This document shows positions 9,578 to 34,989 of a stretch of DNA of 39,225 bases, in pieces; position 1 is the stretch's first letter, and every line of letters begins with the position of its first letter. The translations under genes were made by a program, and so were the position numbers. This stretch comes from Gammaproteobacteria bacterium (GTDB lineage Bacteria > Pseudomonadota > Gammaproteobacteria > Steroidobacterales > BM003), in contig JAPHSC010000032.1 in NCBI GenBank assembly GCA_026193125.1, positions 1 to 39,225 of the forward strand, written 5' to 3'. The notes under the pieces were generated by a model. It searched no databases, was not told the DNA's origin, and saw only the letters and a list, made by a program, of their open reading frames with translations.

Positions 9578-10975
9578 ATGGCTGGCAGTAGTAAAAAACC
9601 CAAGACCGTATTTCGCTGCAAGGATTGCGGTACCGATCACAGCAAGTGGTCAGGTCAGTGTTCCGGCTGCGGAGAGTGGAATACGCTGGTGCAACATCTC
9701 AGTGTGGCGCCATCGCGCAATACTCCGGCAGGCAGTGGCGACAGCCAGGTAACGACCCTGGACCAGGTCGCCAGGCACAGCATTCCGCGGCTCTCCACCG
9801 GCCTGGTGGAGTTTGACCGTGTGCTGGGCGGAGGAATGGTGCCAGGTAGCACCCTGGTGCTGGGCGGTTTCCCCGGGGCAGGAAAATCCACTCTGTTGTT
9901 ACAGAGCGCATGCCATGTGGCCGATAGTGAGGTGGTGTTGTATGTGGCTGGCGAGGAGTCACTGGAGCAGATTGCCGATCGCGCACACCGCCTGCAATTG
10001 CGCACCGACATGCTCAGGGTCGTGGCGGAAACCGACATCACGGTGATTACCTCGATCATGGAGCGGGAGCGGCCGGCAGTTGTCATCGTGGATTCCATCC
10101 AGGTCATGCATCACCCGGATATCGACTCTTTGGCCGGCAATACCACCCAGGTGCGCGAATGCGCAAACGTGCTGAGCCGCTTTGCCAAGCGTCTCAAATC
10201 CACGGTCATCCTGGTCGGTCATATCACCAAGAGCGAGAACCTGGCAGGCCCAATGACGCTCAACCACCTGGTTGACGCTACCCTGATGCTGTCCAGCACA
10301 GATGACGCTCGCTACCGGATTGTGCGCTCTGACAAGAACCGTTTCGGATCGGTGGCAGAGATAGGCGTGTTCGCGATGACGGGCACAGGTATGAAGGAAG
10401 TGCGAAATCCGTCGGCGATATTCCTGAGTAAGTCCAACAAAGAATTGCCCGGCAGCATTGTGACGGTGCTATGGGAAGGCAGCCGACCGCTACTGGTTGA
10501 GTTGCAGGCCCTGGTTGATCAAAGCGCGCTGGGGAATCCGCGCCGCGTGACGGTGGGCATTGACAACACGCGGGTCGCAATGCTGCTCGCGGTTCTTAAT
10601 CGTCATGGTGGCATCGCCGTGCATGACCAGGATGTCTATGTAAACGTGGTGGGTGGAATACGCGTCAGCGAGCCCAGCGCAGACCTGGCCATCTTGCTCA
10701 GTGTACTCAGCAGCCTGCGCGACCGCGCCATTCCTCCCGACGTGTTTGCGTTCGGCGAGGTAGGCTTGTCCGGTGAAGTACGACCCTGCGCCAACGGACA
10801 GGAGCGCATCCGTGAAGCGGCCAAACATGGATTCAAGACAGCGATAGTGCCTGCGGCGAATGCGCCCAGGGAACCGGTGCAGGGATTAAAAATCGTCCCG
10901 GTGAATACCTTACAGGAAGCGCTGGATTGGGCGCTGGAGTCCCTGACACCTTGCAGACACCCAACGCGGGACTAA
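9578..10975 (+). CDS. radA: DNA repair protein RadA/Sms
   Basis: Zinc finger CKDCGTDHSKWSGQCSGCGEWNT, Walker A GFPGAGKST, KNRFG motif (DKNRFGSV), and a Lon-protease-like C-terminal domain. Confidence 0.95.
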   Translation: MAGSSKKPKTVFRCKDCGTDHSKWSGQCSGCGEWNTLVQHLSVAPSRNTPAGSGDSQVTTLDQVARHSIPRLSTGLVEFDRVLGGGMVPGSTLVLGGFPGAGKSTLLLQSACHVADSEVVLYVAGEESLEQIADRAHRLQLRTDMLRVVAETDITVITSIMERERPAVVIVDSIQVMHHPDIDSLAGNTTQVRECANVLSRFAKRLKSTVILVGHITKSENLAGPMTLNHLVDATLMLSSTDDARYRIVRSDKNRFGSVAEIGVFAMTGTGMKEVRNPSAIFLSKSNKELPGSIVTVLWEGSRPLLVELQALVDQSALGNPRRVTVGIDNTRVAMLLAVLNRHGGIAVHDQDVYVNVVGGIRVSEPSADLAILLSVLSSLRDRAIPPDVFAFGEVGLSGEVRPCANGQERIREAAKHGFKTAIVPAANAPREPVQGLKIVPVNTLQEALDWALESLTPCRHPTRD

Positions 10976-11093: not shown

Positions 11094-13625
11094 ATGGGTC
11101 TGGGCACAACTGCTTTTTGGCGTTCGAACTGGCTGGTTGCGCTGGTTTACAGTGGCGTTTTCACGCTGCTGGCAGTATTTCCCTTCGCTAGCGCCCTGCA
11201 AAATGCTGAATCAGGCGTGCTGACGCATGCGATGAAGTGGTCAGTGCAGACGCCATCGAACGACATCGCGATCATCGCAATTGATCGCAAGAGCCTGGAG
11301 AATGTCGGTGATTGGCCCTGGCAACGAAATGTTTTCGCCCAGCTTATCGACCAATTGGCCACCAGCGGTGCCCGCAGTATAGCCACCACGATCAGGCTGG
11401 ACTCGCCACAGAACGAATTGGGCCTGTTTTACCTGACAGGTTTGCGCGAGCGCCTCGCATCAGGGGGCGCCAACAGCAAAATTCTGGTGGAACCCATGGC
11501 CTACCTGGACCAGGCCCTGGCCGACCTGGGTACCGACTCAAATCTTGCTGAAAGCATGGCCAGAGCCGGCAATGTCTACCTGCCTATGGATTTTCCACGT
11601 AACGGTCGGCCTGGCGACATGGCTCCGTACAGCCCGATCCAATGGCTGGCAGACAGCCCCGCAATTCAGGCCCCGCGGGCAGGGTACGCGCAGCAAGCGC
11701 TGCCCCTGTTCACAACGGCAGCCGCCGGAAGCGGACACCTGTATATGCCGACTGACTCCGACGGGATCAGGCGCCGGTTCAACCTCCTGGTGTCCTCGCA
11801 GGGCAAACTCTACCCCTCGCTGGCCCTGCTGCTTACCACTGGAGCGCGTGGCAATAACCCCATCAATGCGAGCGTTGACGAAGAAAATAGGCTGCATATA
11901 GGAAGCCTGCTGGTACCCGCAGATAGCACACTGGCTACGATCGTTCACTGGTACCCGCCGCGTGCCGGGGCCCAGCCCTTCACGGTAGACTCTTTTTGGG
12001 ATGTTTTTGCTGGCAATACGCCGGCTGACAAGTTCCGCAACAAGATCGTGTTACTGGGTCCAACGGAAAAATCGCTAGCCCGAATGCTGAAAACGCCAGT
12101 CGGGGCCAGCACTCCGGAAATAATCGCCCTCGCACATGAAATCTCAACCCTGATTAATCAGCACTTCACGGCCAGACCTGCCTGGGTTCCGGGGGCCGAA
12201 TGGGCTGTTTGGTTATTAGTCGCAATCTACCTGGCCTTTGTTCTTCCGCGCCTGCGGCCACGCTTCGCCATTCTTACCAGCCTGGGTATCACCGCCATCA
12301 TGCTGGTAGCCAGCATGGCGATTTATGTTTCCGAAAATATCTGGCTCAAACCCCTGGGCCCGATACTTATGTTGCTGTTGGGTCACATGGTGCTCGCCGT
12401 AAAGAGCCTGGACTGGGAACGGCTGCTGGAAAAGAGGCAACCCAACGAACAGATTGAGAGCAACCGGATGCTGGGACTGGCGTTCCAGGCACAAGGCGAG
12501 CTGGAGCTGGCCTGGGATAAATTCCGCGGCCTGCCACTGGATGACAGCATGATGGCTATACTGTACCAGCTGGCGTTGGGGTTCGAGGCCAAGCGTAAAC
12601 TGAACCGTGCCGCTGATATATATGACCACATGGCTGCCTTCGACGCCGACTATCGCGACCTGCAAAAACGTATGCGGCTGGCTCAACAATTGGAAGACAC
12701 GGTCACCCTGGGATTGCCCGGGGCCTCCGGCAGGGCACCGGTTCGCTTGTCTGAGGACGGCCCGGGCCAGCCACAACTGGGGCGCTACCAGGTACAGGAG
12801 GAAATCGGCAAGGGCGCCATGGGCGTGGTCTACCTGGCCTACGATCCCCGTCTAAACCGCCAGGTCGCTTTGAAGGCCATCCCGCTGGCGGAGGAGTTTT
12901 CGGAAAACGAGCTGGAGGAGGTCAAGCTGCGATTCTTTCGTGAGGCAGAGGCTGCCGGACGCCTGGATCACCCCGATATAGTCGGTGTCTATGACGTTGG
13001 CGAGGACAACGACTTGGCCTATATAGCCATGGAATACGTGGATGGACATCGCTTGAGCGAGTTTACCTCTCCGGCTCACCTGCTCGCCGAGGAAACCGTT
13101 CTGGAACTCACCGCCCGGACGGCTGAAGCCCTGCACTACGCGCACTCGCGCGGTGTTGTCCACCGCGACATCAAACCCTCAAACTTGCTCTACAACGAGA
13201 GCATTGATCAACTCAAAGTCGCTGACTTCGGTGTGGCCAGGTTTGATGACAGCAATCGCACCCGGACCGGCCTGGTCATGGGAACGCCTTCGTACATGTC
13301 GCCAGAGCAAATCGAGGGTGAAAATGTGACGGGAGCCTCGGACTTGTTTTCCTTAGGTGTTACGCTATACCAGCTACTTACGGGATATTTGCCATTCCGG
13401 GCAGATTCCTTGGCCAAGTTGATGTACAAAATTGCCAATGAACCCCATTTGGCTGTTAACTTAGTGAGGAGTGATTTACCGGACTGTATCGAAAAGTTGA
13501 TGAGTAAAGCTCTGGCGAAAAAGCCTTTGGATAGATTCAATAGCGGCGCCGAGATGGCCAAGTCCATCAGGGACTGCCTCAGCAGACTTAGAGAAGAAAA
13601 AGCCCACGGATCCAATAGCTTATGA
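11094..13625 (+). CDS. CHASE2 sensor domain-containing Hanks-type serine/threonine protein kinase
   Basis: 843 aa. It has an N-terminal TM helix and an extracytoplasmic CHASE2-like region (IAIIAIDRKSLENVGDWPWQRNVFAQLIDQL). Three TM helices fall at about aa 370-440, followed by a TPR-like linker. The kinase domain starts at about nt 12780 (IGKGAMGVVY, VALK, HRDIKPSNLL, DFGVA, GTPSYMSPEQ). Confidence 0.85.
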   Translation: MGLGTTAFWRSNWLVALVYSGVFTLLAVFPFASALQNAESGVLTHAMKWSVQTPSNDIAIIAIDRKSLENVGDWPWQRNVFAQLIDQLATSGARSIATTIRLDSPQNELGLFYLTGLRERLASGGANSKILVEPMAYLDQALADLGTDSNLAESMARAGNVYLPMDFPRNGRPGDMAPYSPIQWLADSPAIQAPRAGYAQQALPLFTTAAAGSGHLYMPTDSDGIRRRFNLLVSSQGKLYPSLALLLTTGARGNNPINASVDEENRLHIGSLLVPADSTLATIVHWYPPRAGAQPFTVDSFWDVFAGNTPADKFRNKIVLLGPTEKSLARMLKTPVGASTPEIIALAHEISTLINQHFTARPAWVPGAEWAVWLLVAIYLAFVLPRLRPRFAILTSLGITAIMLVASMAIYVSENIWLKPLGPILMLLLGHMVLAVKSLDWERLLEKRQPNEQIESNRMLGLAFQAQGELELAWDKFRGLPLDDSMMAILYQLALGFEAKRKLNRAADIYDHMAAFDADYRDLQKRMRLAQQLEDTVTLGLPGASGRAPVRLSEDGPGQPQLGRYQVQEEIGKGAMGVVYLAYDPRLNRQVALKAIPLAEEFSENELEEVKLRFFREAEAAGRLDHPDIVGVYDVGEDNDLAYIAMEYVDGHRLSEFTSPAHLLAEETVLELTARTAEALHYAHSRGVVHRDIKPSNLLYNESIDQLKVADFGVARFDDSNRTRTGLVMGTPSYMSPEQIEGENVTGASDLFSLGVTLYQLLTGYLPFRADSLAKLMYKIANEPHLAVNLVRSDLPDCIEKLMSKALAKKPLDRFNSGAEMAKSIRDCLSRLREEKAHGSNSL

Positions 13626-14452
13626 GCCTCCGCAACAAAATCAAGATCGTTGAACTCACGGATACCGGGAAAATCCGGGAGCATAACGAGGACGCGATAG
13701 GGACCGACAAGGACTTGGGCTTGCTCGTATTGGCCGATGGAATGGGCGGTTACAATGCGGGCGAAGTCGCCTCTGGAATTGCCGTAAAAACAGTATTGAA
13801 GCAGGTCGCAAAATCACTCCAGAGCCTGGCCGAGGACCGTGACGACGTGGAACCACAGACCGGCCTGTGGCGCCAGAGCGTGATACTGAGGGACGCGGTG
13901 GCCCGCGGTAACAAACTGATTCACAACCAGGCCCAGATACGTCCGGAGTGCGAAGGCATGGGCACTACCCTGGTCGCCTGTCTGTTTTATAACAATCATG
14001 TGTCGGTCGCCCATGTGGGAGACTCGAGAATGTACCGTCTGCGTGACGGGCGGTTCGAACAAATCACGCTCGACCATTCCCTGCTTCAGGAGTTGGTGGA
14101 CCGCGGCTTTTATTCACAGGAAGAAGCCCAGCGCTCAACCAATCGGAACTATGTGACCCGCGCGCTTGGCGTGGAGAAAGCGGTCGAAGTCGAGATCAAT
14201 GAGTACGAGGTTAAGCCAGGGGATTATTATTTGCTGTGCTCAGACGGTTTGACGGATATGGTGGAAGACGAGGATATTCATTTAACGATCAGTACGTTTC
14301 ATGATAGTCTTGATACCGCTGGTCAACAATTGGTCAAGCTAGCGAATGACCATGGCGGCAAGGATAATATCTCCGTTGTGATAGGTTACGTTGCCCAGTC
14401 GTTTGGGGTGCGTAAGGGATTGTTGAAGACACTGGCAAGAAAGCTCAGATAA
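13622..14452 (+). CDS. PP2C-family Ser/Thr protein phosphatase (Stp1-like)
   Basis: 276 aa (LADGMGGYNAGEVAS, GDSRMY, CSDGLTD, GGKDNISVV). The start overlaps the kinase stop in an ATGA (13622-13625). Confidence 0.9.
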   Translation: MSLRNKIKIVELTDTGKIREHNEDAIGTDKDLGLLVLADGMGGYNAGEVASGIAVKTVLKQVAKSLQSLAEDRDDVEPQTGLWRQSVILRDAVARGNKLIHNQAQIRPECEGMGTTLVACLFYNNHVSVAHVGDSRMYRLRDGRFEQITLDHSLLQELVDRGFYSQEEAQRSTNRNYVTRALGVEKAVEVEINEYEVKPGDYYLLCSDGLTDMVEDEDIHLTISTFHDSLDTAGQQLVKLANDHGGKDNISVVIGYVAQSFGVRKGLLKTLARKLR

Positions 14453-14470
14453 ACCAGTAGAGGGCTTGGC

Positions 14471-15181
14471 ATGGCGCGTTTAATTCTCAGCCTCGACGGT
14501 CAGTTGATGGCTGAATACAACATGACCAAAGAGCGGTACACCATCGGCCGGCTTCCCGACAATGACGTGCGTATTGATAACGCAGCTGTCAGTGGTCATC
14601 ACTCACTGATCATCAACATTTTAAACGACTCCTTCCTTGAAGACTTGAATAGCACTAACGGTACTTACGTTAATGGGAAGTTGATCAAGAAGCATGCCTT
14701 GCAAAACAGCGACGTGATCACTATTGGTCATCACCAACTTCGCTTCGTAGATGGTGAGGACGACGGGGATGAGGCCGATGAGTTTGAAAAGACCATGGTC
14801 ATCAACCCAAGTAGTCAGAGTCAGGACAAGATCGAACGGGTTCGCCAGCAAGTAGCCGAGGCGGTCGCCTCGCCTGGCGGCCTGGTCCAGACCGGACGTG
14901 CCGGCATGGTGCCAATGGCCAAGTTACAGGTCCTTAGCGGTACCTTCGCGGGTCGCGAACTGGAACTGAAAAAAGCGCTCACAACACTGGGCCGGCCTGG
15001 TCTGCAAGTGGCTGCAATCACTCGGCGAGCCGAGGGCTACTATGTGGTGCACGTAGACGGCGGGAAAGACGATCGTCATCCATTGCTGAATGGTGAATCC
15101 ATAGGCTCCAAGGCGGCGCGTCTGGAAGACAACGACGTGATTGAAATCGCAGGCGTCAAGATGGGCTTTTTCCTTACCTGA
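14471..15181 (+). CDS. FHA domain-containing protein (canonical N-terminal FHA, acidic linker, FHA-like C-terminal domain)
   Basis: 236 aa. The N-terminal FHA has IGR...VSGHH...STNGTYVNG...GDxITIG. The linker is DGEDDGDEADEFE. The C-terminal 90 aa keep the GR and NG positions but not the Ser-x-x-His pair. Confidence 0.85.
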   Translation: MARLILSLDGQLMAEYNMTKERYTIGRLPDNDVRIDNAAVSGHHSLIINILNDSFLEDLNSTNGTYVNGKLIKKHALQNSDVITIGHHQLRFVDGEDDGDEADEFEKTMVINPSSQSQDKIERVRQQVAEAVASPGGLVQTGRAGMVPMAKLQVLSGTFAGRELELKKALTTLGRPGLQVAAITRRAEGYYVVHVDGGKDDRHPLLNGESIGSKAARLEDNDVIEIAGVKMGFFLT

Positions 15182-23456: not shown

Positions 23457-23543
23457 GCCCAGGTGGCGGAATTGGTAGACGCGCTAGCTTCAGGTGCTAG
23501 TTATCGTAAGGTAGTGGAGGTTCAAGTCCTCTCCTGGGCACCA
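23457..23543 (+). tRNA. tRNA-Leu (anticodon CAG), type II with long variable arm, encoded CCA
   Basis: GCCCAGG acceptor 5' half pairs with CCTGGGC, followed by A and CCA. Anticodon stem CTAGC/GCTAG with loop TTCAGGT. T-arm GGAGGTTCAAGTCCTCT. Very similar in layout to E. coli Leu tRNAs. Confidence 0.93.
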
Positions 23544-23789
23544 TCCCTTCGCTGGACCTGTTGCCTCTTTGTAGAAGTCTGACACGCAAATATTCCGTGC
23601 GGTGGGTCGGCAGCTTCTCACGTCTCGCACAACGTTCAAGATCGAAACACCACCGACCAAGTCAGCTTACCCGGCCAGCAAAAACAAGCGGCTGAGAGCT
23701 TGGTTTGAAACAGTCGGACATCGACATAACCGCGACATGCAGAATGTCGCGATGGGAAGCCTGGACAACGGTTTCTTTGTAGCCTCGGA

Positions 23790-24857
23790 TTATCCCTGCT
23801 CGGAACGCAATTCCTGTCGTGGTCGCCGGGCAAGGGCAAGGCCAACTGTTTTCGGACTCTGGTAGTCAATGCAGCGAACACCCTCCTCGAATTCCCGCAA
23901 GGAAAGCAGCCAGGTATGACCTGGCCAATGCAGCTCCAGCGTACCCTGGATTGAGCGGTAGGCCGCCGTATACAGGGTGCCAAAGCCCCGATCAAAGGCG
24001 AGCGAATATAGCGGCGGCCGCTGGAATGCTGCAATAAATTGCCGGGCCGTGCCAGGATGCCGCTTGAGCCGGCGCAGTAACAATTCCTCCCGCTCCACCG
24101 AGGCCGTGGCCCGTGCGTGATCCACCCATTCCACTTCATGTTGATGGTTGGTGGCGATGGGTGAACGGGTCACAACAGTCGGCCGGTCCGGACTCAGAAA
24201 GACAGTGCGGTGATTCCTTGCCCTGTCCATCACCGTTACGTTGTAGGCCATATGACACGGGATCCGTTTTAACGCGCGTACCGCATCCTTAACATTCGTG
24301 CAGGTCTCAAGCACGTAACGCAAGACTATTGGTACACCAAATCCCTTGCCAACCACTCGACGGCCACCGAAGGTCAGAGAAATAACCAGACCATCCTCGT
24401 TTATCCCGTCCAACAGACCGATGAGGCAGTCAGACACTCCCAATACCTTGCGCCCCAGCCACTGCGTCCGCAGCACGACCGCGTCAAACGCTTGCGGCGC
24501 ATAATCGTAATTTCTGACCAGCATCGGTTCAGGTCCGTGCCACACTGCCTGCGAACATCCGCTCATATATGCGGGCGGACCGTAGCCGGATAAAAAACGG
24601 GAGGCATGATCGCCCCCGCCAGCCAACTCCACCAGCCGCTCATACACGGGCACCAACTCTGGCATGTGGTCAGCCACGGCCGTGAAACACTCACGGTAAG
24701 TTGGCCGCGCAAGCTCCCCTTCCGACAACCAGAATCGGCTGTAGGCCGGCCAAAGCCGTGCAAACAATGCAGTCCACTTCTGGCCTGGGACCGCCTCGTC
24801 AATGGCAGTAAAATTCAGTTGCATGACACTGGTGTGCACAGTCTGCGCGAGTAACAC
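23790..24857 (-). CDS. C45-family (acyl-CoA:6-aminopenicillanic acid acyltransferase-like) Ntn hydrolase/acyltransferase
   Basis: 355 aa. The Gly100-Cys101 pair (YMSGCSQAVW, Cys codon 24555-24557) sits where C45 proenzymes self-cleave. The downstream VRNYDY motif is typical of the family. The start could be M12 (MQLNF). Confidence 0.65.
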   Translation of the reverse strand: MLLAQTVHTSVMQLNFTAIDEAVPGQKWTALFARLWPAYSRFWLSEGELARPTYRECFTAVADHMPELVPVYERLVELAGGGDHASRFLSGYGPPAYMSGCSQAVWHGPEPMLVRNYDYAPQAFDAVVLRTQWLGRKVLGVSDCLIGLLDGINEDGLVISLTFGGRRVVGKGFGVPIVLRYVLETCTNVKDAVRALKRIPCHMAYNVTVMDRARNHRTVFLSPDRPTVVTRSPIATNHQHEVEWVDHARATASVEREELLLRRLKRHPGTARQFIAAFQRPPLYSLAFDRGFGTLYTAAYRSIQGTLELHWPGHTWLLSLREFEEGVRCIDYQSPKTVGLALARRPRQELRSEQG

Positions 24858-24891
24858 GCGCCCATCAATTCAGACCTAAGTGCTAGAGCAC

Positions 24892-26358
24892 TCAAAGCAA
24901 TTTAAACCCCGGCTCTGAAATAACCGGCTTGGCTTCTGCCGAAGTCAGTGGCACCGAGGCGTAATGAGCCCGAATCCCGTGTATCCACTTTTTCGCCTGC
25001 TCGGTCAATTTGAACTTGTCGTCCATCAGTCGGCCTCGCGTCACCAGGATACCCAGGTCCGCCCCTTCGTAGCGGTAGTCACCAGGCTTGAGGATGCGAA
25101 GGAAAAACGCCTCGCTTTCACTCTCGACCGCGCGCCGATGGTAATCAAAACGATTGAAACTGACTGTGCCATCCTCAGCCATTTTCCATATACCGCTCTC
25201 GGGCGCTGCGGTCAGGATGTCCAGGCTATCTTCAGTATGCTTAATCACCAGCTGCGACCAGCTATCGATGTTTTGCGGATCCGACCAGCGCTCATTTAAT
25301 TCATCTATGTCCAGGGCGAATGGCACACCGGAAAACTCAAGCAGGTGGAACAAAAACAAGGGAGCATCAGCATGTGCGAACGCCGCATGATTGGTCATTG
25401 AGCTCGCACCGGTGATGCGGGGATTCAACTCGCCCAAATAAATGTCCTTGGTTTTCTGGTCAATCAGGAAATCCAGTTCAAAATATCCGCGATAACCTTC
25501 CTTCACCAATTGCTTGCCGAATTTGGCCGTATAGTCTCTCGCCTTATCTCGCACTTTGCGAGAAAATGCTCCGGCAAATATCTCGTTTCCGCACCAGCCG
25601 CCACGGTACGGTGTGAGCTCAGGAAATCCGACCAATTCCGTCATCATCGGCCCCACGATGGTTCCGTGCTTGGTAGCGCAGGCCTCGATTGCCGCTCCAC
25701 GACAATTGATGCGCTTCATGACCTTGATCTCGCCCTGCCCGATTATTTCATGCTGGTGGCGCTCAAAATCTTTCCGGCTCTTGATGAAAAAGGTCGTGTG
25801 CCCTGAGTCACCGAATGCAGACTGCAAAACCAGGTCCTTGCCCAGACCAGCTTCGCTGGCGGCCGCGGCCAAGTCCTCGTAACTATTGATCACCGCCAGG
25901 GTGTTGGGAACACTGGGTACACCGGCCTTGTTGCCTATTCGAACGGTCTCTATCTTGTTATCGACGCGATTGCGCAGCTGCGCCTTGGGAAACCAGACTT
26001 CGCCTCCAATTTCCTCTACAAGTTTCTCGGTCTCCTCATCGAACATGAGGAAGACAAATTTTGCCTCTGAGTCCCTGGCCCGAATCCGGTCCATGACCTC
26101 CTTGTGCTGAAGAAGATAGTTATTGATGTCCTCAATCGACTGAAACTCTTCATGCGGCTGGTTGGACGGTACAAATACATTGGGATGACGGCCATCAAAG
26201 CAGTCGATGTAATTTATATACTTGAAATTGCGCACCCACTCGTCCAGACCCAAAAGGTTGAAATTTGTTGCGCTCACAAAATAGATCGGCGTCTCGTTCC
26301 TGTGGAAGAAGCGACGAATTTCGGACATGTTCTTCAGTTTTTTTCGTTTGCTAGACAT
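24892..26358 (-). CDS. ATP-grasp domain carboxylate-amine ligase (often auto-annotated as biotin carboxylase-like)
   Basis: 488 aa. The central ATP-grasp region has VLQSAFGDSGHTTFFI, YFELDFLID and GELNPRITGAS (an E-x-N-P-R type motif). It lies 23 nt downstream of the decarboxylase. Confidence 0.78.
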   Translation of the reverse strand: MSSKRKKLKNMSEIRRFFHRNETPIYFVSATNFNLLGLDEWVRNFKYINYIDCFDGRHPNVFVPSNQPHEEFQSIEDINNYLLQHKEVMDRIRARDSEAKFVFLMFDEETEKLVEEIGGEVWFPKAQLRNRVDNKIETVRIGNKAGVPSVPNTLAVINSYEDLAAAASEAGLGKDLVLQSAFGDSGHTTFFIKSRKDFERHQHEIIGQGEIKVMKRINCRGAAIEACATKHGTIVGPMMTELVGFPELTPYRGGWCGNEIFAGAFSRKVRDKARDYTAKFGKQLVKEGYRGYFELDFLIDQKTKDIYLGELNPRITGASSMTNHAAFAHADAPLFLFHLLEFSGVPFALDIDELNERWSDPQNIDSWSQLVIKHTEDSLDILTAAPESGIWKMAEDGTVSFNRFDYHRRAVESESEAFFLRILKPGDYRYEGADLGILVTRGRLMDDKFKLTEQAKKWIHGIRAHYASVPLTSAEAKPVISEPGFKLL

Positions 26359-26381
26359 TGAGCAATTCCTTAATTCTGTTG

Positions 26382-29141
26382 TCAGTTAGCTGCCAGCGCC
26401 GCCAGGGCTTCCTCGGTAAACACTCGCAGACCCAGCTCCGCCCTGTAACCATGGATTTCGGTCACATCAAGCTTGCGCATAAAATCCAGGATCTCCGAGG
26501 AGATTACCTGCCCGGGAACCAGGATCGGGAATCCCGGAGGATAGGGAATGATGAACCCGGAGGACACCACATCGCGTCCCGTGGCCATGGCCTCATCAAG
26601 TTCGTCGCCATCCAGCGGAAAATATTCGCATTTGCTCTCATCATAAGCCATGAAGAAAGGTCGGCGCATGTCACCGGCCGGGGTCCTGTCGCCATGCGAG
26701 CGAAACGCGTCATGGAAACGCGAGAAGTCGGGCAACGCCGGCAAGTCCTGGGTCAGTGACTTCACGCGTTTCTCGAACGCCCTGCGTTCCATCTTGCTGG
26801 CGTCCTCGTTGCCGGAATCCAGCTCCCGCGCAATTTTCACCAGCACCTCGATAAGGTAGGCCACCGAGGATCGGGTCGTACCAATGTTGGTCATAAACAG
26901 AACGGTGTTCCTCGACGTTTTGTTCACCTGTATGCCGTACTTGTCCATCAGGTATTCGTTCTTGAATGTGTTGCCATCGATTCCCGCTGCACTGGTCACC
27001 AGGGTCACCCTGGTGGGATCCAGGACGAATTCGTCGCTTACCCAGGCGTCCCAGAGCTGACTCCAGCCACGTTGCTCGTCCCAATACACGCCAATACCGC
27101 TGGTACGGAATTCTCCCGGAACCATGTCTTCAGCTGCCAGCACCTGAAAATATTTTTTCAACAAAGGATGCGACGAAATTGCCCGACGCATAATCATCGC
27201 CGCCTCGATCTGCTTTTGCACAAACTCGAAGCCCTCCAGTTCTACCTGCCGACGCCCCACATCCAGGGAAGCGATAATCTGGTAGTTTGGCGAGGTAGAA
27301 GTATGGGTCATATAGGCCTCACGAAAGGCCTGTTCAACTTCCCCCTTGAAGTCTTGGTCATGCACGTGGATCATCGAGCCCTGGCGCAGGGCAGTCAGTG
27401 TCTTGTGCGTTGACTGTGTAGCATAGGTACGCACTCGAACCAGGTCCGGATCAGGCATCAGTCTGGTCGCAAGCATCCCCTCGTCGTCACTGGGCGCCTG
27501 GCGCTTCCAGTCTTCATAGACCTTGCGGTACTCGTCAGAGCGATAACGCTTTCGCAGCAAGTCCGCGCTATGCATGGCCGTACGCTGACGGTAGGTGGGA
27601 GAGAATCTTGCGAAAGCAAACCACGCCTCGTCCCACAAGAAAATCAAGTCGGGCTTGATTGCCAGACACTCCTCCATCACCCGCTGGACGTTATAAACAA
27701 TGCCGTCGAAAGTGCAGTTGGTCAGCAGCAGCATGCGTACTCGATCAAGTTGTCCGGCATGCTTCAGATCCAGCAACTGCCGTTTTATGTCGCGCAATGG
27801 AACAGCGCCGTACATGGACCACGCGTGCAAGGGATAGCTATCCAGATAGACTATCTGTGCGCCGCAAAGCACCAGGCCATAGTGATGGGATTTATGACAA
27901 TCGCGGTCAACCAGGACGATATCACCGGGCTGCACCAACGCCTGCACTACTATCTTGTTACAGGTAGAGGTGCCGTTGGTGGCAAAATAAGTCTGCTTTG
28001 CGCCAAACGCCCGTGCCGCCAGTTCCTGGGCACGCTTGATCGGTCCGTGGGGCTCGAGCAAGGAGTCCAGTCCCCCGGATGTTGCAGAGGTTTCCGCCAG
28101 GAAGATATTGGGGCCATAGAACTCGCCCATATCCTGTATCCAGTGCGACTTCGCAATGGATTTCCCGCGACTTATCGGCAAGGCATGAAACACGCCGGTA
28201 GGTTGCTTGGAAAAGTTCTTCAGGGCGCTGAAGAACGGCGTCTCGTAACGCAGCGACACGCCGCGCAGGATGTTCAAATGAAGCTCGGTGAAATCCTCCA
28301 GGTTATAAAAAACCCGACGACAATTACCCAGGTCGCGTCCAGCAATATCCTCGGCCCCCCTGTCGGTGACCAGGTAGACGTCCAGTTCGGGACGTACCTT
28401 GCGAATAAGCCGACACAACTCGGGACCGTAGTCCTGGGGATCAAGTTCATCCAGGTCCTCATCTCCGATGCGGGAAAGATACTGGGTCAGGATTTTTAAC
28501 CGGTTTGTGCTGCGCAAGCCAAAACCGAAACGTACGACAACCGCCTGGATATTGTGGTTGATCATGACTGCAATCAGCGCATCTTCCAGGGTCGGCGTGA
28601 ATACGGGCTCATAGGTGAACGGATCTTCACGGCGTCGCATGGCGGTCAGGCCTGAGCGCAAGGTGCGCTCCTGTGGTGCAGTCAGTTCATCGACAAACAA
28701 GGTCTCGAAATACGGCCGTGCATACACGCGCGCCTCGGGACTTTCTTCCTCATCGATGCCACCGTCCAAATCCCCGGTTTCGCCAAGCAAGGGAACAGTT
28801 CTTCTGCGATAGTAGCCGCTGGAAGTTGCTCTAACGATGCGCTTCACGACTTGCGCCAGCTCCTCGTAGCTGCCGCGGCTCAACAGTTGCCCCAACCTGT
28901 CAAAGGCTGATCGTCCGGGGAATGCCCAGAACGTCTCTATGGGCTCGAGAGCATCCGCCAACTCCGCCGCCTGCTCGTGTAATCTCTGGGTTCCGCGGCC
29001 TTCGCGCGCGGCGTCAGCAACCCGCTGAGTAATATCCTGCAGCGCGCTCCAACGATCCGCCCTCAATTGGGTGGCGCTGTAGTGATCATCTGCCAGAGCT
29101 GGCACTTTTGCCGATGATTTGGACTTTTGCGAAGGGTTCAT
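26382..29141 (-). CDS. Orn/Lys/Arg decarboxylase-family (fold-I PLP) enzyme, long form (919 aa)
   Basis: Major domain motifs SATSGGLDSLLEPHG, FATNGTSTCNK, DRDCHKSHH and QSTHKTL (PLP-lysine codon at 27402-27404). A wing/receiver-like region falls at about aa 143-280. An additional roughly 140-aa N-terminal segment precedes it. Confidence 0.85.
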   Translation of the reverse strand: MNPSQKSKSSAKVPALADDHYSATQLRADRWSALQDITQRVADAAREGRGTQRLHEQAAELADALEPIETFWAFPGRSAFDRLGQLLSRGSYEELAQVVKRIVRATSSGYYRRRTVPLLGETGDLDGGIDEEESPEARVYARPYFETLFVDELTAPQERTLRSGLTAMRRREDPFTYEPVFTPTLEDALIAVMINHNIQAVVVRFGFGLRSTNRLKILTQYLSRIGDEDLDELDPQDYGPELCRLIRKVRPELDVYLVTDRGAEDIAGRDLGNCRRVFYNLEDFTELHLNILRGVSLRYETPFFSALKNFSKQPTGVFHALPISRGKSIAKSHWIQDMGEFYGPNIFLAETSATSGGLDSLLEPHGPIKRAQELAARAFGAKQTYFATNGTSTCNKIVVQALVQPGDIVLVDRDCHKSHHYGLVLCGAQIVYLDSYPLHAWSMYGAVPLRDIKRQLLDLKHAGQLDRVRMLLLTNCTFDGIVYNVQRVMEECLAIKPDLIFLWDEAWFAFARFSPTYRQRTAMHSADLLRKRYRSDEYRKVYEDWKRQAPSDDEGMLATRLMPDPDLVRVRTYATQSTHKTLTALRQGSMIHVHDQDFKGEVEQAFREAYMTHTSTSPNYQIIASLDVGRRQVELEGFEFVQKQIEAAMIMRRAISSHPLLKKYFQVLAAEDMVPGEFRTSGIGVYWDEQRGWSQLWDAWVSDEFVLDPTRVTLVTSAAGIDGNTFKNEYLMDKYGIQVNKTSRNTVLFMTNIGTTRSSVAYLIEVLVKIARELDSGNEDASKMERRAFEKRVKSLTQDLPALPDFSRFHDAFRSHGDRTPAGDMRRPFFMAYDESKCEYFPLDGDELDEAMATGRDVVSSGFIIPYPPGFPILVPGQVISSEILDFMRKLDVTEIHGYRAELGLRVFTEEALAALAAN

Positions 29142-29235
29142 TGACTACTCCACTGCGTCAGCGGTGATTTTCACGGGCCAGGCAGCATCCCCGACCCAAT
29201 CCGGTCAAGACGCTTTGAATTTTCTGGCTCGACTA

Positions 29236-30264
29236 TCATTCCTTCTGCGTAGGCCAGACCGATGCGGGCGCCGGGACTCCGGTGCCTGCCATTGATCCCC
29301 TTTCTGGCAGTTCCAGCGGCCCCAGCGACGCCAGGAAGGACTCGGCTTTCTGGCCGGGCTCATAGATTGGAAATCGTATCTCGCTATCCCTGAAACTTTT
29401 CAGCGGCTGCCCAAGTCCACGTAGACCACATTCACGCTGCCGCCTGACTTGCTCCATATTGATCTCGATGGGAATTATCTCCTCGCCACCGCCCGCCTGA
29501 TAAAGCAGAACTCCCGAGGGATCCACCACTGCCGAGCGGCCCACGCCGCCGGCACCCAAGCCGTTAATATCGAACACGTAGCACTGGAACTGGGCCGCTG
29601 TCGCACGCGCGATGGCCAGTTCGACGTCTCGGTCCACGGTTCCAGTTAACACCGGGTGGAGCAACACTTCCGCGCCCATGGCAGTCAATGCCCGGGTCGT
29701 TTCCGGGAACCAGATGTCGTAACAGATCGACACGCCGAAACGCCCAACCTGCGGTATGTCAAAGACACAAAATTCGCTGCCGCCGGTTACGCGCTTTTCA
29801 TAGGGCCGGAATGGAAATATCTTGCGGCATCGTGCAACCACCTCGCCCGCAGGATTGATGACCGGAGCCATATTGTAAATCCTGCCGTCTTCGGCTTTTT
29901 CATACATGGAGCCTGGCAGCAACCAGATGCCATGCCGGGCTGCCACCTCACGATAAATGGTTTCCGTCGCCCCTCCAGGCGCCTGGCCAAATTCAGTCAG
30001 GGGACCATGGGAGGCCAACTCGCTAATCATTACCATCTGCACCCAGGGGTACTGGAGAACTGTCAGGTCTATTTTTCGCACCAGTGCTTCAACGTTACTG
30101 TGCAGGGCGGCGACGTGGGTTTGAATACCGGCAATTGAAAAAGGTACCAAGTAAGTTGCTCCAATCAAAGAGTAATGGAATAGCGCGAAGGCGCTGTGGC
30201 CCGGACGTTTTAGGTTCTCGTGCCTGCTTTGTTCAGTCTGGCCGCTACGGCAGTCTACGAACAA
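29236..30264 (-). CDS. Carbon-nitrogen hydrolase (nitrilase superfamily) amidase
   Basis: Glu-Lys-Cys triad context: MVMISEL (E82), CRKIFPF (K148), SICYDIWFPE (C181, codon 29722-29724). The ORF-track start at 30264 is a TTG. A better candidate is the TTG at 30150, preceded by GGAG at 8-nt spacing, which gives 304 aa starting LVPFSIAGIQ. Confidence 0.8.
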   Translation of the reverse strand: MFVDCRSGQTEQSRHENLKRPGHSAFALFHYSLIGATYLVPFSIAGIQTHVAALHSNVEALVRKIDLTVLQYPWVQMVMISELASHGPLTEFGQAPGGATETIYREVAARHGIWLLPGSMYEKAEDGRIYNMAPVINPAGEVVARCRKIFPFRPYEKRVTGGSEFCVFDIPQVGRFGVSICYDIWFPETTRALTAMGAEVLLHPVLTGTVDRDVELAIARATAAQFQCYVFDINGLGAGGVGRSAVVDPSGVLLYQAGGGEEIIPIEINMEQVRRQRECGLRGLGQPLKSFRDSEIRFPIYEPGQKAESFLASLGPLELPERGSMAGTGVPAPASVWPTQKE

Positions 30265-30719
30265 GGAATTGTCGTAGACGGATTACACAAACCCCGATAG
30301 TCTAACAGATCATTGAATTTTACGATATTCACGCAAGCTCGCCCGCGTGTCGTCCCAGGGATCTTGCCACCTTCATAATTGCAGATGCATGGGCGAGAAA
30401 CTTGGGCTGATTTCTCGACATGCCAATGCCGGCTGGCGATAAAACGGGACGCGCGATTGCCGGAAAGACCGCTATGGCCACTCACTGGGTAGATCTACCA
30501 TTCCGGCACTTCCTGCCTGCGGTGACACTCGGCTCGAATTCGCTGCCTTATGCGAGACACCACGCCTTCAAAGGCAGGCGCTTTCGGCAGGTCACTACAA
30601 AAGCGCAGCGATTACGTCTAGCTCTTCCGGTGACTGGAATCCACGCCCGCATAATGTAAGACGGCCAACCCGGACTACCTTGAGCTGGCAGGGCTTGCAC
30701 TGGAAAATGCCTTGCAGGG

Positions 30720-30935
30720 TCAGTCGTCGGGATCCGCCGGCCCACCGCCCCACTGATCTCGATGGGCTTGCTCGGCCTGCTGGCGGACGGCTGAATGACG
30801 GTTACTGAGTAGCAATGATGAGGGATCGCAGACCACTGCCCGAATCATGCCGAGGTCACGGGCAGCCTCGAACACACTGGGATACCAGCGTTCCCAGTTG
30901 GGCAGGCGACGTTCAACCTCGTTCTTCAAACTCAT
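30720..30935 (-). CDS. Hypothetical 71-aa protein (unrecognised)
   Basis: The only ATG-started ORF with protein-like composition in a 0.9-kb coding-poor gap. No motif recognised and no clear RBS checked. Confidence 0.25.
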   Translation of the reverse strand: MSLKNEVERRLPNWERWYPSVFEAARDLGMIRAVVCDPSSLLLSNRHSAVRQQAEQAHRDQWGGGPADPDD

Positions 30936-31178
30936 GTGTCGATTTCCGGCATTTTAGCGATTCCGTCTGCGTCAGAATCCTGTGGTCTGCAAGGCCTATT
31001 CTCCCCGAGGCAAGCCCCAATGTATATCGCCAAACTGCGAACCGCTTGGTAGTTTGCATACCGCACAGGTCAGCAGTCAGCCCCGACAGCACCTGCCCAA
31101 CGCCAGCGACCGACCCCGTTGTCCGATGGCGGGCCCATTTGCCAACGATCCATTTTTGCCAACATAAATTGGTTGATG

Positions 31179-32078
31179 TTACTCAGGCAGCGCCTGCAAA
31201 CGGAATACGGATATCAACAGGCTTGAGGGCCGGCTACCCACCAATCCGAACCATTTGCGATAGAGGACTCCAATCTGCTCACTACCGTAAATCTGCGCCA
31301 GGGCCCGATTGGCGACCAGACGAAAGTCTGCATCTTCCCTGGGGACCATCAACGCATAAGGTTCGAACGAAATCATGTCCTCGGATATCTGCAAGCGGTC
31401 ACGCACCGGGGACTGCATAATCTGTCCTATCAGCAAGGCACGATCTGAAAAAAAGCCATCTACGGAACCCTCGGCCAGCATGCCCATGCCCGTGGTCAGA
31501 CTACCGACCGAAACGATCTGCGCGGATAATTTTGTATCTGTCAAATACTGATTGAGCACATCCTCAGTAGTGGTTCCGGCGATCACCGCCACTTTCTTGC
31601 CCTCGATTTGTGATGGCTCACGAAAGCCGGAGTCACGCAGGGATAACATGGAAACCCCGGTAACAAATGTCATCAGGGTGAAGTCCACTCTTTCCATTCG
31701 GCCAAGGGTTTGTGTGGTGGTACTGCAATCCATGTCGACGCGACCATTCGCCAGGGCATTGATGCGATCAGCGCTCTCGACCGCAACAAATACGATGTTC
31801 AACTTGGGCAGTTTCAATTCACGCCGCACCTGCTCGGCGACCGCACGGCAAAGGTCCAGCGAGTAGCCAGCCGGCTTTCCGGCCTTGTCAATGAAGGAAA
31901 AAGGCGGCGCATCCTCACTGTAGCCGAATACAATACGGCCACTCTCCCGCACCGTATCAAGCACCGGCCCCCTCGCCAACAAGGACTGTGGCAACATTGC
32001 CGCCCAGACCGCCAGCACAATTCCAGCCACCGTACTGCGCATACTGGAGTTTCCCTGTGACTTGCCGACCTGATTCAT
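31179..32078 (-). CDS. Periplasmic amino-acid-type solute-binding protein (family 3 SBP), orphan
   Basis: 299 aa with a signal peptide (alternative start M13 at 32042) and SBP_bac_3-like blocks (IVFGYSEDAPPFSF, GYSLDLCRAV, DMDCSTTT, DGFFSDRALL). No ABC permease or ATPase is adjacent. Confidence 0.78.
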   Translation of the reverse strand: MNQVGKSQGNSSMRSTVAGIVLAVWAAMLPQSLLARGPVLDTVRESGRIVFGYSEDAPPFSFIDKAGKPAGYSLDLCRAVAEQVRRELKLPKLNIVFVAVESADRINALANGRVDMDCSTTTQTLGRMERVDFTLMTFVTGVSMLSLRDSGFREPSQIEGKKVAVIAGTTTEDVLNQYLTDTKLSAQIVSVGSLTTGMGMLAEGSVDGFFSDRALLIGQIMQSPVRDRLQISEDMISFEPYALMVPREDADFRLVANRALAQIYGSEQIGVLYRKWFGLVGSRPSSLLISVFRLQALPE

Positions 32079-32225
32079 GTCGATGCGCCCCGTTTACTTT
32101 CGATACCCAAACCAAGCATAGCCAAAGTATTCGTCGAAAGGAAAAATATGATTGTAGTGAAGATGAATATGAGGCGATTTGCCTGGACAATCCAGGCGGC
32201 GTCAGGTACCGAAGCAGACGCGGCC

Positions 32226-33647
32226 TCAGATCACCTTGCCAGGATTCATAATCCCGGATGGATCCAGCGCCGCCTTGATCTTTCGCATGAGGCCGATCTC
32301 GGATGCGCTTTTATACACCGCCAATTCCTCGCGCTTTAGTCTGCCTATACCGTGCTCGGCAGAAATACTGCCACCGTACTGGTCGATCAACTCATGTACT
32401 GCATGGTTGACCCGCCCGGCTTGTTCCAGAAACACCGGGTCCCTGTCACCTTCCGCGGGGCTGAGATTAAAGTGCACGTTACCGTCGCCCAGGTGACCGT
32501 AGGAGACTACCCTGCAACCGGGTACCAGCGTTTTCACCAGGCTGGTTGCCTCGCTAACAAAGGCCGGCATTTTTCTGACCTGCACCGAAACATCATGCTT
32601 GATACTCGGCCCCTCGTGTGACTGGGCCTCCGGAATACTCTCACGCATGCGCCACATCGCCTCGCGCTGAGCTCCGCTACTTGCCAGTGCAGCATCCAGC
32701 ACGATCTCCCGTTCAAACCCCTCGCCCAGCAGCAACTCCAACAATGCCTGGGTCTGGCTTTCCTCAGTCGCGCAGGATAACTCCAGCAAGACGTACCAGT
32801 CGTAAACCTTGCCCAAGGGGTCTGTCACACCGTCAATGTGCCGAGTGGTAAGTTCCAGCGCCAGCCGTGGTATTAACTCAAAGGTGGTTACCGAATCACC
32901 ACTTTGTTCTCGCAGCAGGGACAACAACTCGACCGAGGCATCCAGATCGCGCAGGGCCACCAACGCCGTTCCATAAGAACGCGGCATGGGATACAGTTTC
33001 AGAACCGCCGCAGTGACCACACCCAGCGTACCCTCGGCACCAATGAACAAGTTCTTCCAGTCGTAGCCGGTATTGTCCTTGCGCAAGCCCTTAAGGTTCT
33101 CGATGACGCTGCCGTCAGGTAACACAGCCTCTATCCCCAGTACCAGGTCGCGAGTATTGCCGTAACGCAGTACCGCCGTACCCCCCGCATTGGTCGACAA
33201 GTTACCACCAATCTGGCATGAGCCTTCCGATCCCATGCTCAGGGGAAACAGGCGTTGCACTTTCTCGGCTGCTTCCTGTACCTGCGCCAGGGTGCAACCG
33301 GCATCCGCCGTCAGGGTGTAATTCAGGGGATCCAGACCGCGAATCTTGTTCAACCGGGCCAGGCTCAGCACGACCTGCTCACCGGATTCATCCGGCGTGG
33401 CGCCCCCGCAGTAGCCGGTATTGCCGCCCACTGGAACCACCGGCGTCCCGGTTTCGAAACAAAACTTCATTATGCGGGAGACACGCTCTGTGCTGTCCGG
33501 GCGCAACACCAAAGGCGTTGATCCCTTGTACAGCCTGCGAAAATCGTTCTCGTACGGTTCGATGTCTATGCGTTCATCCAGATACCCGCCGGGCCCGGCG
33601 AGCTCCTTCAACTGTTGCAGGATCTCCTGGCGCGTCGACGTTGCCAT
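32226..33647 (-). CDS. FAD-binding oxidoreductase (GlcD / D-2-hydroxyacid dehydrogenase family)
   Basis: 473 aa. FAD_binding_4-type N-terminus (VLRPDSTERVSRIMKFCFETGTPVVPVGGNTGYCGGATP) and an FAD-oxidase C-terminal domain (GSISAEHGIGRLK). The start is 13 nt after the purA stop. Confidence 0.85.
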   Translation of the reverse strand: MATSTRQEILQQLKELAGPGGYLDERIDIEPYENDFRRLYKGSTPLVLRPDSTERVSRIMKFCFETGTPVVPVGGNTGYCGGATPDESGEQVVLSLARLNKIRGLDPLNYTLTADAGCTLAQVQEAAEKVQRLFPLSMGSEGSCQIGGNLSTNAGGTAVLRYGNTRDLVLGIEAVLPDGSVIENLKGLRKDNTGYDWKNLFIGAEGTLGVVTAAVLKLYPMPRSYGTALVALRDLDASVELLSLLREQSGDSVTTFELIPRLALELTTRHIDGVTDPLGKVYDWYVLLELSCATEESQTQALLELLLGEGFEREIVLDAALASSGAQREAMWRMRESIPEAQSHEGPSIKHDVSVQVRKMPAFVSEATSLVKTLVPGCRVVSYGHLGDGNVHFNLSPAEGDRDPVFLEQAGRVNHAVHELIDQYGGSISAEHGIGRLKREELAVYKSASEIGLMRKIKAALDPSGIMNPGKVI

Positions 33648-33660
33648 ACAGCCTTCCCGC

Positions 33661-34989
<1,329 letters not shown>

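Follow-up and report, generated by a model that had tools for sequence, protein, structure and literature searches.

A candidate GABA operon in which a long-form decarboxylase accompanies a conserved, predicted ligase–hydrolase module

What does an operon make, or break down, when it joins an amino-acid decarboxylase to an ATP-grasp enzyme and two cysteine hydrolases? The question is raised by a 39,225-nucleotide (nt) stretch of gammaproteobacterial DNA (contig JAPHSC010000032.1 of assembly GCA_026193125.1; hereafter, the window), a metagenome contig from an uncultured organism. On its minus strand, four closely spaced genes (the quartet) encode a nitrilase-superfamily protein (CN-hydrolase), a pyridoxal 5′-phosphate (PLP)-dependent decarboxylase, an ATP-grasp protein and a C45-family protein. 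An initial annotation, made from the letters of the window, proposed a self-contained system that makes an amine from a basic amino acid, ligates it and trims or recycles the product. Here, we report that the quartet is conserved across many genomes and that its decarboxylase most likely produces 4-aminobutyrate (GABA) from L-glutamate. We propose, with a probability of about 50%, that the quartet is a GABA-centred module in which the other three enzymes (the trio) form and cleave an amide of GABA or of a glutamyl precursor. In the order of transcription, the four genes are as follows.

29236–30150, minus strand: CN-hydrolase gene, 304 amino acids from a probable TTG start; the open frame extends to 30264, which would give 342 amino acids.
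26382–29141, minus strand: long-form PLP decarboxylase gene of the Rv2531c type, 919 amino acids.
24892–26358, minus strand: ATP-grasp gene (family NF005096/PRK06524), 488 amino acids.
23790–24857, minus strand: C45 gene, 355 amino acids from a GTG start, or 344 from an ATG at 24824.

The decarboxylase had been taken to act on a basic amino acid, and the protein does match the Pfam family OKR_DC_1 (E = 3.5e-75). It falls, however, below all NCBIfam cut-offs for lysine, ornithine and arginine decarboxylases (219 versus 968, 192 versus 1056, 180 versus 1167 and 168 versus 794 bits), a shortfall of 4–8-fold. Its best match among solved structures is instead the Mycobacterium tuberculosis enzyme Rv2531c (PDB 9N0N, 9N0O and 9N0P; E = 1.5e-256), to which it aligns essentially end to end (query residues 8–917 with residues 8–905 of the 9N0N chain). 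The alignment to 9N0N covers the complete four-domain, long-form architecture, including the extra N-terminal domain that, together with a length of about 920–950 amino acids, served as our criterion for the long form. Rv2531c was described as a ‘long form’ decarboxylase with an extra N-terminal domain in 2026 (PMC13506015). It is inactive on lysine, ornithine and arginine and converts L-glutamate to GABA, feeding the GABA shunt, in a Mg2+-dependent and cooperative reaction; the evidence comprises knockout metabolomics, 13C labelling and NMR assays, and residues K406, T606, R576, R718 and N731 have been proposed to bind the substrate (PMC13506015).

These residues can be traced in the window protein, where H416, K417, K580 (the PLP lysine), R586, T616 and N740 correspond to Rv2531c H405, K406, K570, R576, T606 and N731. 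We counted residue conservation, here and below, over 53 CN-hydrolase, 76 decarboxylase, 64 ATP-grasp and 63 C45 homologues. The S-T-H-K580 motif is intact, and the PLP lysine and the proposed glutamate-recognition positions are conserved in 75–76 of the 76 decarboxylases. The remaining residue, Rv2531c R718, is replaced conservatively by Lys727, and all 76 aligned homologues, nearly all of them proteobacterial, have lysine there. Arg586 and Lys727, both conserved, would fit an acidic side chain. Given the Rv2531c-type homology, the conserved glutamate-recognition residues and the failed lysine, ornithine and arginine cut-offs, the premise of a basic amino acid is probably wrong. The window decarboxylase most likely makes GABA from L-glutamate rather than a polyamine-type amine, an assignment by homology to Rv2531c, the only enzyme of this kind for which the activity has been demonstrated.

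The same evidence bears on the product that the initial annotation had in view, an N-acyl polyamine: an ornithine, lysine or arginine decarboxylase would supply a diamine or agmatine, the ATP-grasp enzyme would acylate it, and the amidases would trim or recycle the conjugate. The Pfam class of the decarboxylase is what this model predicts, and arginine-catabolic genes do lie beside the trio in some genomes. Yet every lysine, ornithine and arginine equivalog cut-off is missed by the wide margin given above, the closest characterised homologue is inactive on these amino acids, the conserved Arg586 and Lys727 suit an acidic side chain, and the neighbouring genes are gabT, gabD and Glu/Asp-type transporter genes rather than polyamine genes. 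We consider a polyamine conjugate very improbable.

The quartet itself is far from unique to the window. ATP-grasp homologues with 75–94% identity number in the thousands in Alpha- and Gammaproteobacteria, and at least 589 tblastn-confirmed matches were found among species-representative genomes. We compared 80 genome loci (66 with full flanks) with 80 metagenome loci of greater diversity (22 with full flanks). The order CN-hydrolase, decarboxylase, ATP-grasp, C45 was essentially invariant in the 80 fetched loci. All 66 genome loci with full flanks contained the decarboxylase, and 65 each contained the CN-hydrolase and C45. The C45 gene directly followed the ATP-grasp gene in 79 of 80 and 64 of 65 loci (143/145 together). 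The quartet was also found, at 45–67% identity, in Betaproteobacteria (Cupriavidus and Burkholderia) and on a Bacteroidota plasmid (Chondrinema). Because the gene order recurs in Alpha-, Beta- and Gammaproteobacteria and on this plasmid, we regard the quartet as a functional unit; judged from these comparisons, its genes are real, active and functionally linked. The co-localisation across genomes that the initial annotation had made a test of its proposal is thus borne out.

Individual loci can depart from the usual arrangement. A Geminicoccaceae metagenome-assembled genome (L004) has no CN-hydrolase gene and carries an AstE/AspA-family deacylase gene (5558–6511 of that locus) just upstream of the decarboxylase; the deacylase may be a non-orthologous replacement, and may hint at an N-acyl-Glu/Asp-type substrate for the CN-hydrolase. 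In R. leguminosarum pRL9b2, a ‘hypothetical protein’ encoded between the decarboxylase and ATP-grasp genes (9771–10565 of that locus) joins an ATP-grasp N-terminal fragment to a decarboxylase C-terminal fragment, a chimera that appears to be the remnant of a local duplication or rearrangement.

Genes that accompany the quartet elsewhere point to GABA metabolism. The Chondrinema operon runs from succinate-semialdehyde dehydrogenase and gabT through CN-hydrolase, decarboxylase and an APC permease to ATP-grasp and C45. At a second locus (L107), a MocR-like regulator gene is divergent from a row comprising gabT, gabD, the quartet, an SDF symporter and an SBP_bac_3 gene, and both catabolic enzymes score above their equivalog cut-offs (GabT, TIGR00700, 622 bits, cut-off 507; GabD, TIGR01780, 731 bits, cut-off 646). 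Within the ±10 kb flanks, 31 of the 66 genome loci encode a class III aminotransferase, often immediately 5′ of the CN-hydrolase gene and facing a divergent gene for a PuuR-like regulator with helix-turn-helix (HTH) and cupin domains (15 loci). A TAXI-TRAP transporter lies directly upstream in 31 loci of the genome set and a universal stress protein (USP) gene is present in 19. The metagenome set repeats these themes, with GabR-like regulators, aminotransferase, aldehyde dehydrogenase, SDF symporter with family-3 solute-binding protein (SBP3), and TAXI-TRAP genes; an aminotransferase or aldehyde dehydrogenase occurs in 14 of its 22 full-flank loci. The transporters linked to the quartet (TAXI-TRAP, SDF, APC and SBP3) are all of Glu/Asp or uptake type. 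In Bradyrhizobium, a decarboxylase, ATP-grasp, C45 row adjoins divergent genes for histidine utilisation, a pathway that ends in glutamate. Judged by the company that it keeps, the quartet seems to serve the breakdown or homeostasis of GABA and not to be a biosynthetic cluster that stands alone. The description of the module as self-contained does not survive this comparison, because operons elsewhere combine the quartet with uptake transporters, gabT, gabD and regulators of the MocR/PuuR type.

Decarboxylase and trio also occur apart. The long-form decarboxylase is found alone on S. meliloti pSymB and in Roseateles. In Rhizobium sp. T1473 and Rhodobacter sp. CZR27, genes for long-form decarboxylases with ~50% identity precede those for one or two antiporters of the AspT family and an aspartate 4-decarboxylase (aspD), with HdeA and carbonic anhydrase nearby, an arrangement in the style of acid resistance that contains neither ATP-grasp nor C45. 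Such pairings with AspT-type antiporters, aspD and HdeA, and the USP genes and APC permeases of some quartet loci, are what would be expected if the decarboxylase belonged to a classical decarboxylase/antiporter acid-resistance system and the other genes were incidental neighbours. The window has no antiporter, however; the antiporter-type loci lack ATP-grasp and C45; the near-perfect linkage of the trio cannot be incidental; and gabT and gabD in the same operon imply that GABA is consumed rather than exported. We give acid resistance hardly any credence as an explanation of the quartet.

The trio, for its part, also occurs on its own. In Cupriavidus necator N-1 and Polaromonas, with no decarboxylase gene, the order is aldehyde dehydrogenase, MFS transporter, RraA-like protein, Dpp-type ABC importer, CN-hydrolase, ATP-grasp, C45 and MocR-like regulator, and at another decarboxylase-free locus the trio lies beside astA/astB. 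An arginine-type operon, likewise lacking the decarboxylase, surrounds the ATP-grasp and C45 genes in Shinella, in Sinorhizobium RAC02 and at several metagenome loci. This operon encodes an amino-acid permease, a USP, a ureohydrolase, 5-guanidino-2-oxopentanoate decarboxylase (AruI; 737 bits, cut-off 500), an aldehyde dehydrogenase, ATP-grasp, C45, a D-amino-acid dehydrogenase, a racemase and RidA, and the gene for the orthologous CN-hydrolase is divergent from it. A gene set of this kind converts arginine through 2-ketoarginine to 4-guanidinobutyrate; with the ureohydrolase acting as a guanidinobutyrase, the route would end in GABA and urea. The Shinella ATP-grasp and C45 proteins are 80–83% identical to the decarboxylase-linked ones of S. 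meliloti, so the two pairs are probably equivalent in function. What the decarboxylase-linked and arginine-type settings most simply have in common is GABA or a 4-substituted butyrate, and we propose that the trio forms a module of its own, which can be attached to whatever route provides GABA. Its invariant core is ATP-grasp with C45, usually joined by the CN-hydrolase. The four-gene unit of the initial annotation is therefore conserved as such, but its core is smaller and also occurs without the decarboxylase.

The central enzyme of this core belongs to a family that carries a misleading name. The ATP-grasp protein matches NF005096 at 787 bits, and both this family and the RefSeq entries are called ‘biotin carboxylase’. 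We modelled the protein with AlphaFold2 from a 70-sequence alignment (predicted local distance difference test score (pLDDT) 84.6, predicted template-modelling (TM) score 0.87); this model superseded a poor one from a shallow alignment (pLDDT 64.6). The nearest folds were PurK (TM score up to 0.70) and biotin carboxylases (overall TM scores of 0.56–0.70, identity of 12–15%, Foldseek probability of 1.00), and sequence matches in the PDB were marginal, remote and confined to biotin-carboxylase domains. The protein shares with these enzymes the three-domain ATP-grasp fold and the E-x-N-P-R Mg/phosphate motif. Residues K135, K212, E241, E294, D296, E310, N312 and R314 are invariant or nearly so (63–64 of 64 homologues), as is the E310-L-N-P-R314-I-T-G motif; the ATP-grasp fold, the ATP-binding lysine and the Mg-binding Glu/Asn are thus all present. 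The biotin-carboxylase residues Lys238 and Glu296 (Escherichia coli numbering), in contrast, align to Asn258 and Ala318 in an alignment to R. etli pyruvate carboxylase that is anchored on E-x-N-P-R and low-scoring outside this motif; position 318 is Ala in 58 and Cys in 6 of the 64 homologues. Neither a biotin carboxyl carrier protein (BCCP) nor a carboxyltransferase occurs among the recurrent neighbour families of ~180 loci or in the annotated regions. Because Lys238 and Glu296 are absent and neither partner is found, the family name is unsupported, and the protein is probably a ligase rather than a biotin carboxylase. It differs from biotin carboxylase further in an extra C-terminal region of ~150 residues. 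It is also the most conserved member of the quartet (median identity of 75% versus 57–68% for its partners), and four of its cysteines (C53, C219, C227 and, in the motif TPYRGGWCGNE, C256) show no or almost no variation.

The resemblance to PurK and biotin carboxylase nevertheless suggests a different chemistry, in which ATP and bicarbonate (or formate, as in PurT) would be used to carboxylate or formylate a nitrogen, either that of an amine (GABA, for example) or that of a ureido or lactam group, and the two amidases would process the N-acyl product. Beyond the structural matches and the PDB sequence matches, the named relatives of the CN-hydrolase, which include formamidase and N-carbamoyl amidases, are of the kind that such a route would use, and both feeder routes release CO2. 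The replacement of Lys238 and Glu296 by residues that are themselves invariant or nearly so argues in the other direction, as does the lack of BCCP, carboxyltransferase or any PurE-like partner in the contexts examined; the identity to PurK and biotin carboxylase is just 12–15%, and the fold is common to many ligases. We think an N-carboxylating or N-formylating enzyme distinctly unlikely.

The two hydrolases can be classified with respect to fold and catalytic residues. The C45 protein matches PF03417 (AAT) at 7e-34 (117.8 bits versus 23.2) and NF040521 at 161.5 bits (cut-off 85). All 63 homologues keep its nucleophile, Cys101; the residue before it is Gly in 45, Ala in 13 and Ser in 4 of them, and G100 in the window. 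A single-sequence search against solved structures gave no match and a profile search gave weak matches to choloylglycine hydrolases, which are N-terminal nucleophile (Ntn) Cys hydrolases. We predict that the C45 protein is an autoproteolytic Ntn Cys amidohydrolase/acyltransferase. The CN-hydrolase matches PF00795 at 5e-30, and its catalytic triad and second glutamate (E82/K148/C181/E188, numbered on the longest open reading frame (ORF) and not on the 304-amino-acid call) are conserved in 52–53 of 53 homologues. It lies below every NCBIfam equivalog cut-off (52–65 bits versus 355–500 for formamidase, N-carbamoylputrescine amidase AguB, Nit1/Nit2 and aliphatic amidase). The motifs quoted for all four proteins in the initial annotation are present, and invariant or nearly so across 53–76 homologues.

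Several characterised systems resemble the quartet in part. In the E. coli Puu pathway, an ATP-dependent ligase makes a γ-glutamyl amide and the Cys hydrolase PuuD frees GABA from γ-Glu-GABA; further components are a GABA transaminase, an aldehyde dehydrogenase, an APC permease and a regulator of the PuuR (HTH-cupin) type. Genes for PuuR-like regulators, aminotransferases, aldehyde dehydrogenases and APC permeases likewise lie beside the quartet in many loci. The enzymes differ, however: the ligase of the quartet is an ATP-grasp protein and not a glutamine-synthetase-like PuuA, its hydrolases are of C45 and nitrilase type and not class I amidotransferase-like PuuD, it has no PuuB oxidase, and a decarboxylase stands in place of an imported diamine. 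PuuA, PuuB and PuuD are absent from the window, and a glutamine-synthetase-like gene is adjacent to the quartet in just one related locus (L072).

A second group of precedents pairs a decarboxylase with an ATP-grasp ligase: BtrK/BtrJ (butirosin; γ-Glu-GABA thioester), MfnA/MfnD (methanofuran) and GADL1/carnosine synthase, in which the decarboxylation product (GABA, β-alanine or tyramine) is joined to glutamate or histidine. C45 enzymes, in turn, cleave ω-linked aminoacyl amides, as Drosophila Tan does with β-alanyl amines and IAT with the δ-(α-aminoadipoyl) group. The quartet follows the same logic of a PLP decarboxylase product and an ATP-grasp ligase, with Tan as a parallel for its C45 protein, whereas no sequence relationship to these pairs is detectable past the superfamily level. 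The pairs are biosynthetic and have known products; the quartet, by contrast, encodes no carrier protein and no evident acceptor. Glutathionylspermidine synthetase/amidase, in which an ATP-dependent amide synthetase is combined with a cysteine amidase that undoes its product, is a precedent for a stress-tunable conjugate pool. It shares with the quartet this coupling of amide synthetase to cysteine amidase, but its folds and families are different, both of its activities reside in one bifunctional protein, and it acts on glutathione and spermidine.

The closest relationship remains that to Rv2531c and the GABA shunt (PMC13506015 and PMC12329521), with which the quartet shares the four-domain decarboxylase architecture from end to end, the PLP-lysine motif, the proposed glutamate-binding residues and, in many genomes, a position beside gabT and gabD. 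Unlike Rv2531c, the quartet decarboxylase is locked to ATP-grasp, C45 and CN-hydrolase and has lysine in place of R718. The two Rv2531c papers (PMC13506015 and PMC12329521) mention neither an operon nor neighbour genes, and the texts consulted on S. meliloti SMa0680/SMa0682 give no link to the long-form decarboxylase or the trio. Searches for combinations of ATP-grasp, C45, CN-hydrolase and decarboxylase, for PRK06524, for the RefSeq names and for MocR regulons returned nothing describing the quartet or the trio, and no characterised pathway matches. The long-form decarboxylase family is already known, from work of 2025–2026; what is new here is a GABA-shunt/glutamate decarboxylase operon carrying an undescribed, invariant ligase–hydrolase module.

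In the GABA-centred scheme that we favour, the 919-amino-acid enzyme would decarboxylate L-glutamate to GABA, as its characterised homologue does. The trio would act next, in a manner suggested by genomic context and by the precedents above. The ATP-grasp enzyme would spend ATP on making an amide that contains GABA or its γ-glutamyl precursor, the C45 (N-terminal-cysteine) enzyme would cleave or transfer the acyl group of that product, and the nitrilase-family enzyme would strip a further amide or carbamoyl nitrogen; together, they would buffer, tag or route GABA. GabT and GabD, encoded outside the operon here and in the same operon in many other genomes, would then take GABA to succinate. The logic of making an amine, ligating it and trimming the product is thereby retained from the initial annotation, an ATP-grasp ligase and two Cys amidases acting on a decarboxylation product being the most economical arrangement, but the class of amine is not.

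A number of observations weigh against this scheme. Family searches found no gabT, gabD, regulator or antiporter in the window. The trio loci with the Dpp-type importer have no evident source of GABA; the ureohydrolase is missing from some arginine-type loci, and its role as a guanidinobutyrase is itself a deduction. PurK and biotin carboxylase, the nearest folds of the ATP-grasp protein, carboxylate nitrogens and do not ligate carboxylates. A synthetase and two hydrolases in one operon could equally be catabolic. Finally, the K0.5 of Rv2531c for glutamate is 509 mM (PMC13506015), and therefore free glutamate may not be the true substrate where partner enzymes exist.

The last point is accommodated in a more specific form of the proposal, which we advance tentatively and at clearly less than even odds. 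Here the trio would be an unrecognised, very widespread pathway module that turns GABA, from glutamate decarboxylation or arginine breakdown, into a new GABA-amide or γ-glutamyl-amide metabolite, or that constitutes an ATP-dependent GABA route distinct from GabT/GabD; the substrate of the long-form decarboxylase may then be conjugated rather than free glutamate.

Alternatively, the trio could act upstream of the decarboxylase, freeing glutamate (or GABA) from an imported amide, N-acyl or γ-glutamyl/peptide-like compound. The CN-hydrolase would be a glutaminase or an N-acyl- or N-carbamoyl-glutamate amidase, C45 a γ-glutamyl or dipeptide hydrolase and the ATP-grasp protein an enzyme of ATP-dependent activation or ring opening, and the decarboxylase with GabT/GabD would burn the product. 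This would explain why the linked transporters (TAXI-TRAP, SDF with SBP3, APC and Dpp-type ABC) are all importers and none an exporter, why trio-only loci directly follow a peptide-type ABC importer, why the regulators are of catabolic, PuuR-like and MocR-like types, and why a deacylase of the AstE/AspA family, which releases Glu or Asp from N-acyl forms, takes the usual place of the CN-hydrolase in L004. ATP-grasp enzymes are not known in hydrolytic catabolism, however, the variety of transporters fits the import of feeder amino acids rather than of one special compound, and a glutamate-releasing trio would have no role in the arginine-type operon. On balance, we regard an upstream role for the trio as unlikely. 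Three further roles for the trio (glutaminase subunits that serve an amidoligase, the opening of 5-oxoproline or a lactam, and metabolite repair) were weighed but not retained, as nothing in the data favours them.

Within the window, the layout of the operon is largely as first described. The four ORFs lie on the same strand and, by ORF coordinates, are separated by 94, 23 and 34 nt, although two starts are probably further downstream than assumed. The CN-hydrolase is more likely to start at TTG 30150 than at 30264, because a GGAG lies 8 nt upstream and the gene call of the source contig (304 amino acids) uses the same start. For C45, that gene call begins at ATG 24824, which may be an alternative to the GTG; the last gap would then be 67 nt. 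GGAG/AAGGA ribosome-binding sites precede the decarboxylase and ATP-grasp genes. As noted in the initial annotation, the operon contains no gene for a regulator or exporter, and a pattern scan revealed no convincing terminator inside it. Three further features border the operon.

23685–23702, minus strand: terminator-like hairpin with a T-run, 88 nt past the C45 stop, from the pattern scan.
30720–30935, minus strand: 71-amino-acid ORF between the binding-protein gene and the operon, no Pfam match.
31179–32078, minus strand: orphan gene for a family-3 solute-binding protein, Glu/Asp-binding-like (PF00497).

The hairpin possibly marks the end of the operon, but the number of hairpins in the operon scan equals the shuffled expectation, which weakens its case as a terminator. 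The binding protein has as its best NCBIfam match a glutamate/aspartate ABC substrate-binding protein (1.4e-38, below the cut-off). It shares 31–34% identity with the SBP_bac_3 proteins whose genes, together with one for an SDF symporter, lie after C45 in Betaproteobacteria and elsewhere, and its gene is kept beside the quartet in a 94% relative (L084). The orphan binding protein is possibly an accessory of the system. The spacer between its gene and the operon (30151–31178, minus strand) is unusually long, at ~1 kb. It contains the 71-amino-acid ORF, which has a counterpart at the same position in L084, and ~570 nt of non-coding sequence between this ORF and the CN-hydrolase start. Rfam searches of the operon and the long upstream spacer gave nothing significant beyond tRNA and one chance-level match, an HDV-ribozyme-like match at 31129–31241 on the minus strand that scores 23.9 bits (E = 0.63), short of the gathering score of 50, and is almost certainly due to chance.

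The surroundings are core gammaproteobacterial genes: hflX-hflK-hflC and purA, then tRNA-Leu, rnr, rlmB, rpsF…rplI, dnaB and alr. The quartet, the SBP3 gene and a gene for a GlcD-like FAD oxidase occupy 23457–34953, between purA and tRNA-Leu(CAG)/rnr, an interval that looks like a variable spot and was possibly acquired horizontally. The GC content is 0.52–0.55 across 25–28 kb and 0.60–0.62 in rnr and rlmB. In L084, other genes follow C45 (T_hemolysin, AMP-binding, haem-oxygenase-like and SDR). The FAD oxidase, kept in the 94% relative only, was rejected as a general component of the system. Elsewhere in the window, and unrelated to the quartet, a eukaryote-like signalling cassette (11094–15181) encodes, in a row, a CHASE2-domain Ser/Thr protein kinase, a PP2C phosphatase and an FHA-domain protein. 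At the left edge (204–2604) lie genes for a TAtT-type TRAP transporter (T-component, DctP and DctQ), unrelated to the TAXI-TRAP transporters linked to the quartet.

For the decarboxylase family, the consequence is that the re-assignment of long-form ‘lysine/ornithine/arginine’ decarboxylases to glutamate, for which a single mycobacterial enzyme had been the sole basis, is now supported independently, at the genomic level, by operons with gabT and gabD in hundreds of environmental and plant-associated bacteria. For the ATP-grasp family, the comparison exposes a large and highly conserved group that is mis-named, with more than 6,500 database proteins annotated as ‘biotin carboxylase’, and it delineates a module of three enzymes with tight links to routes that produce GABA. 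In rhizobia, Burkholderiales and marine bacteria of the Roseobacter group, GABA metabolism bears on the carbon/nitrogen balance, on tolerance of stress and on interaction with hosts. The system is open to direct tests, since hosts that include Cupriavidus, Shinella, Sulfitobacter and Paracoccus can be cultured. If the proposal is true, a new GABA-conjugating or GABA-processing step would alter both pathway maps and annotation.

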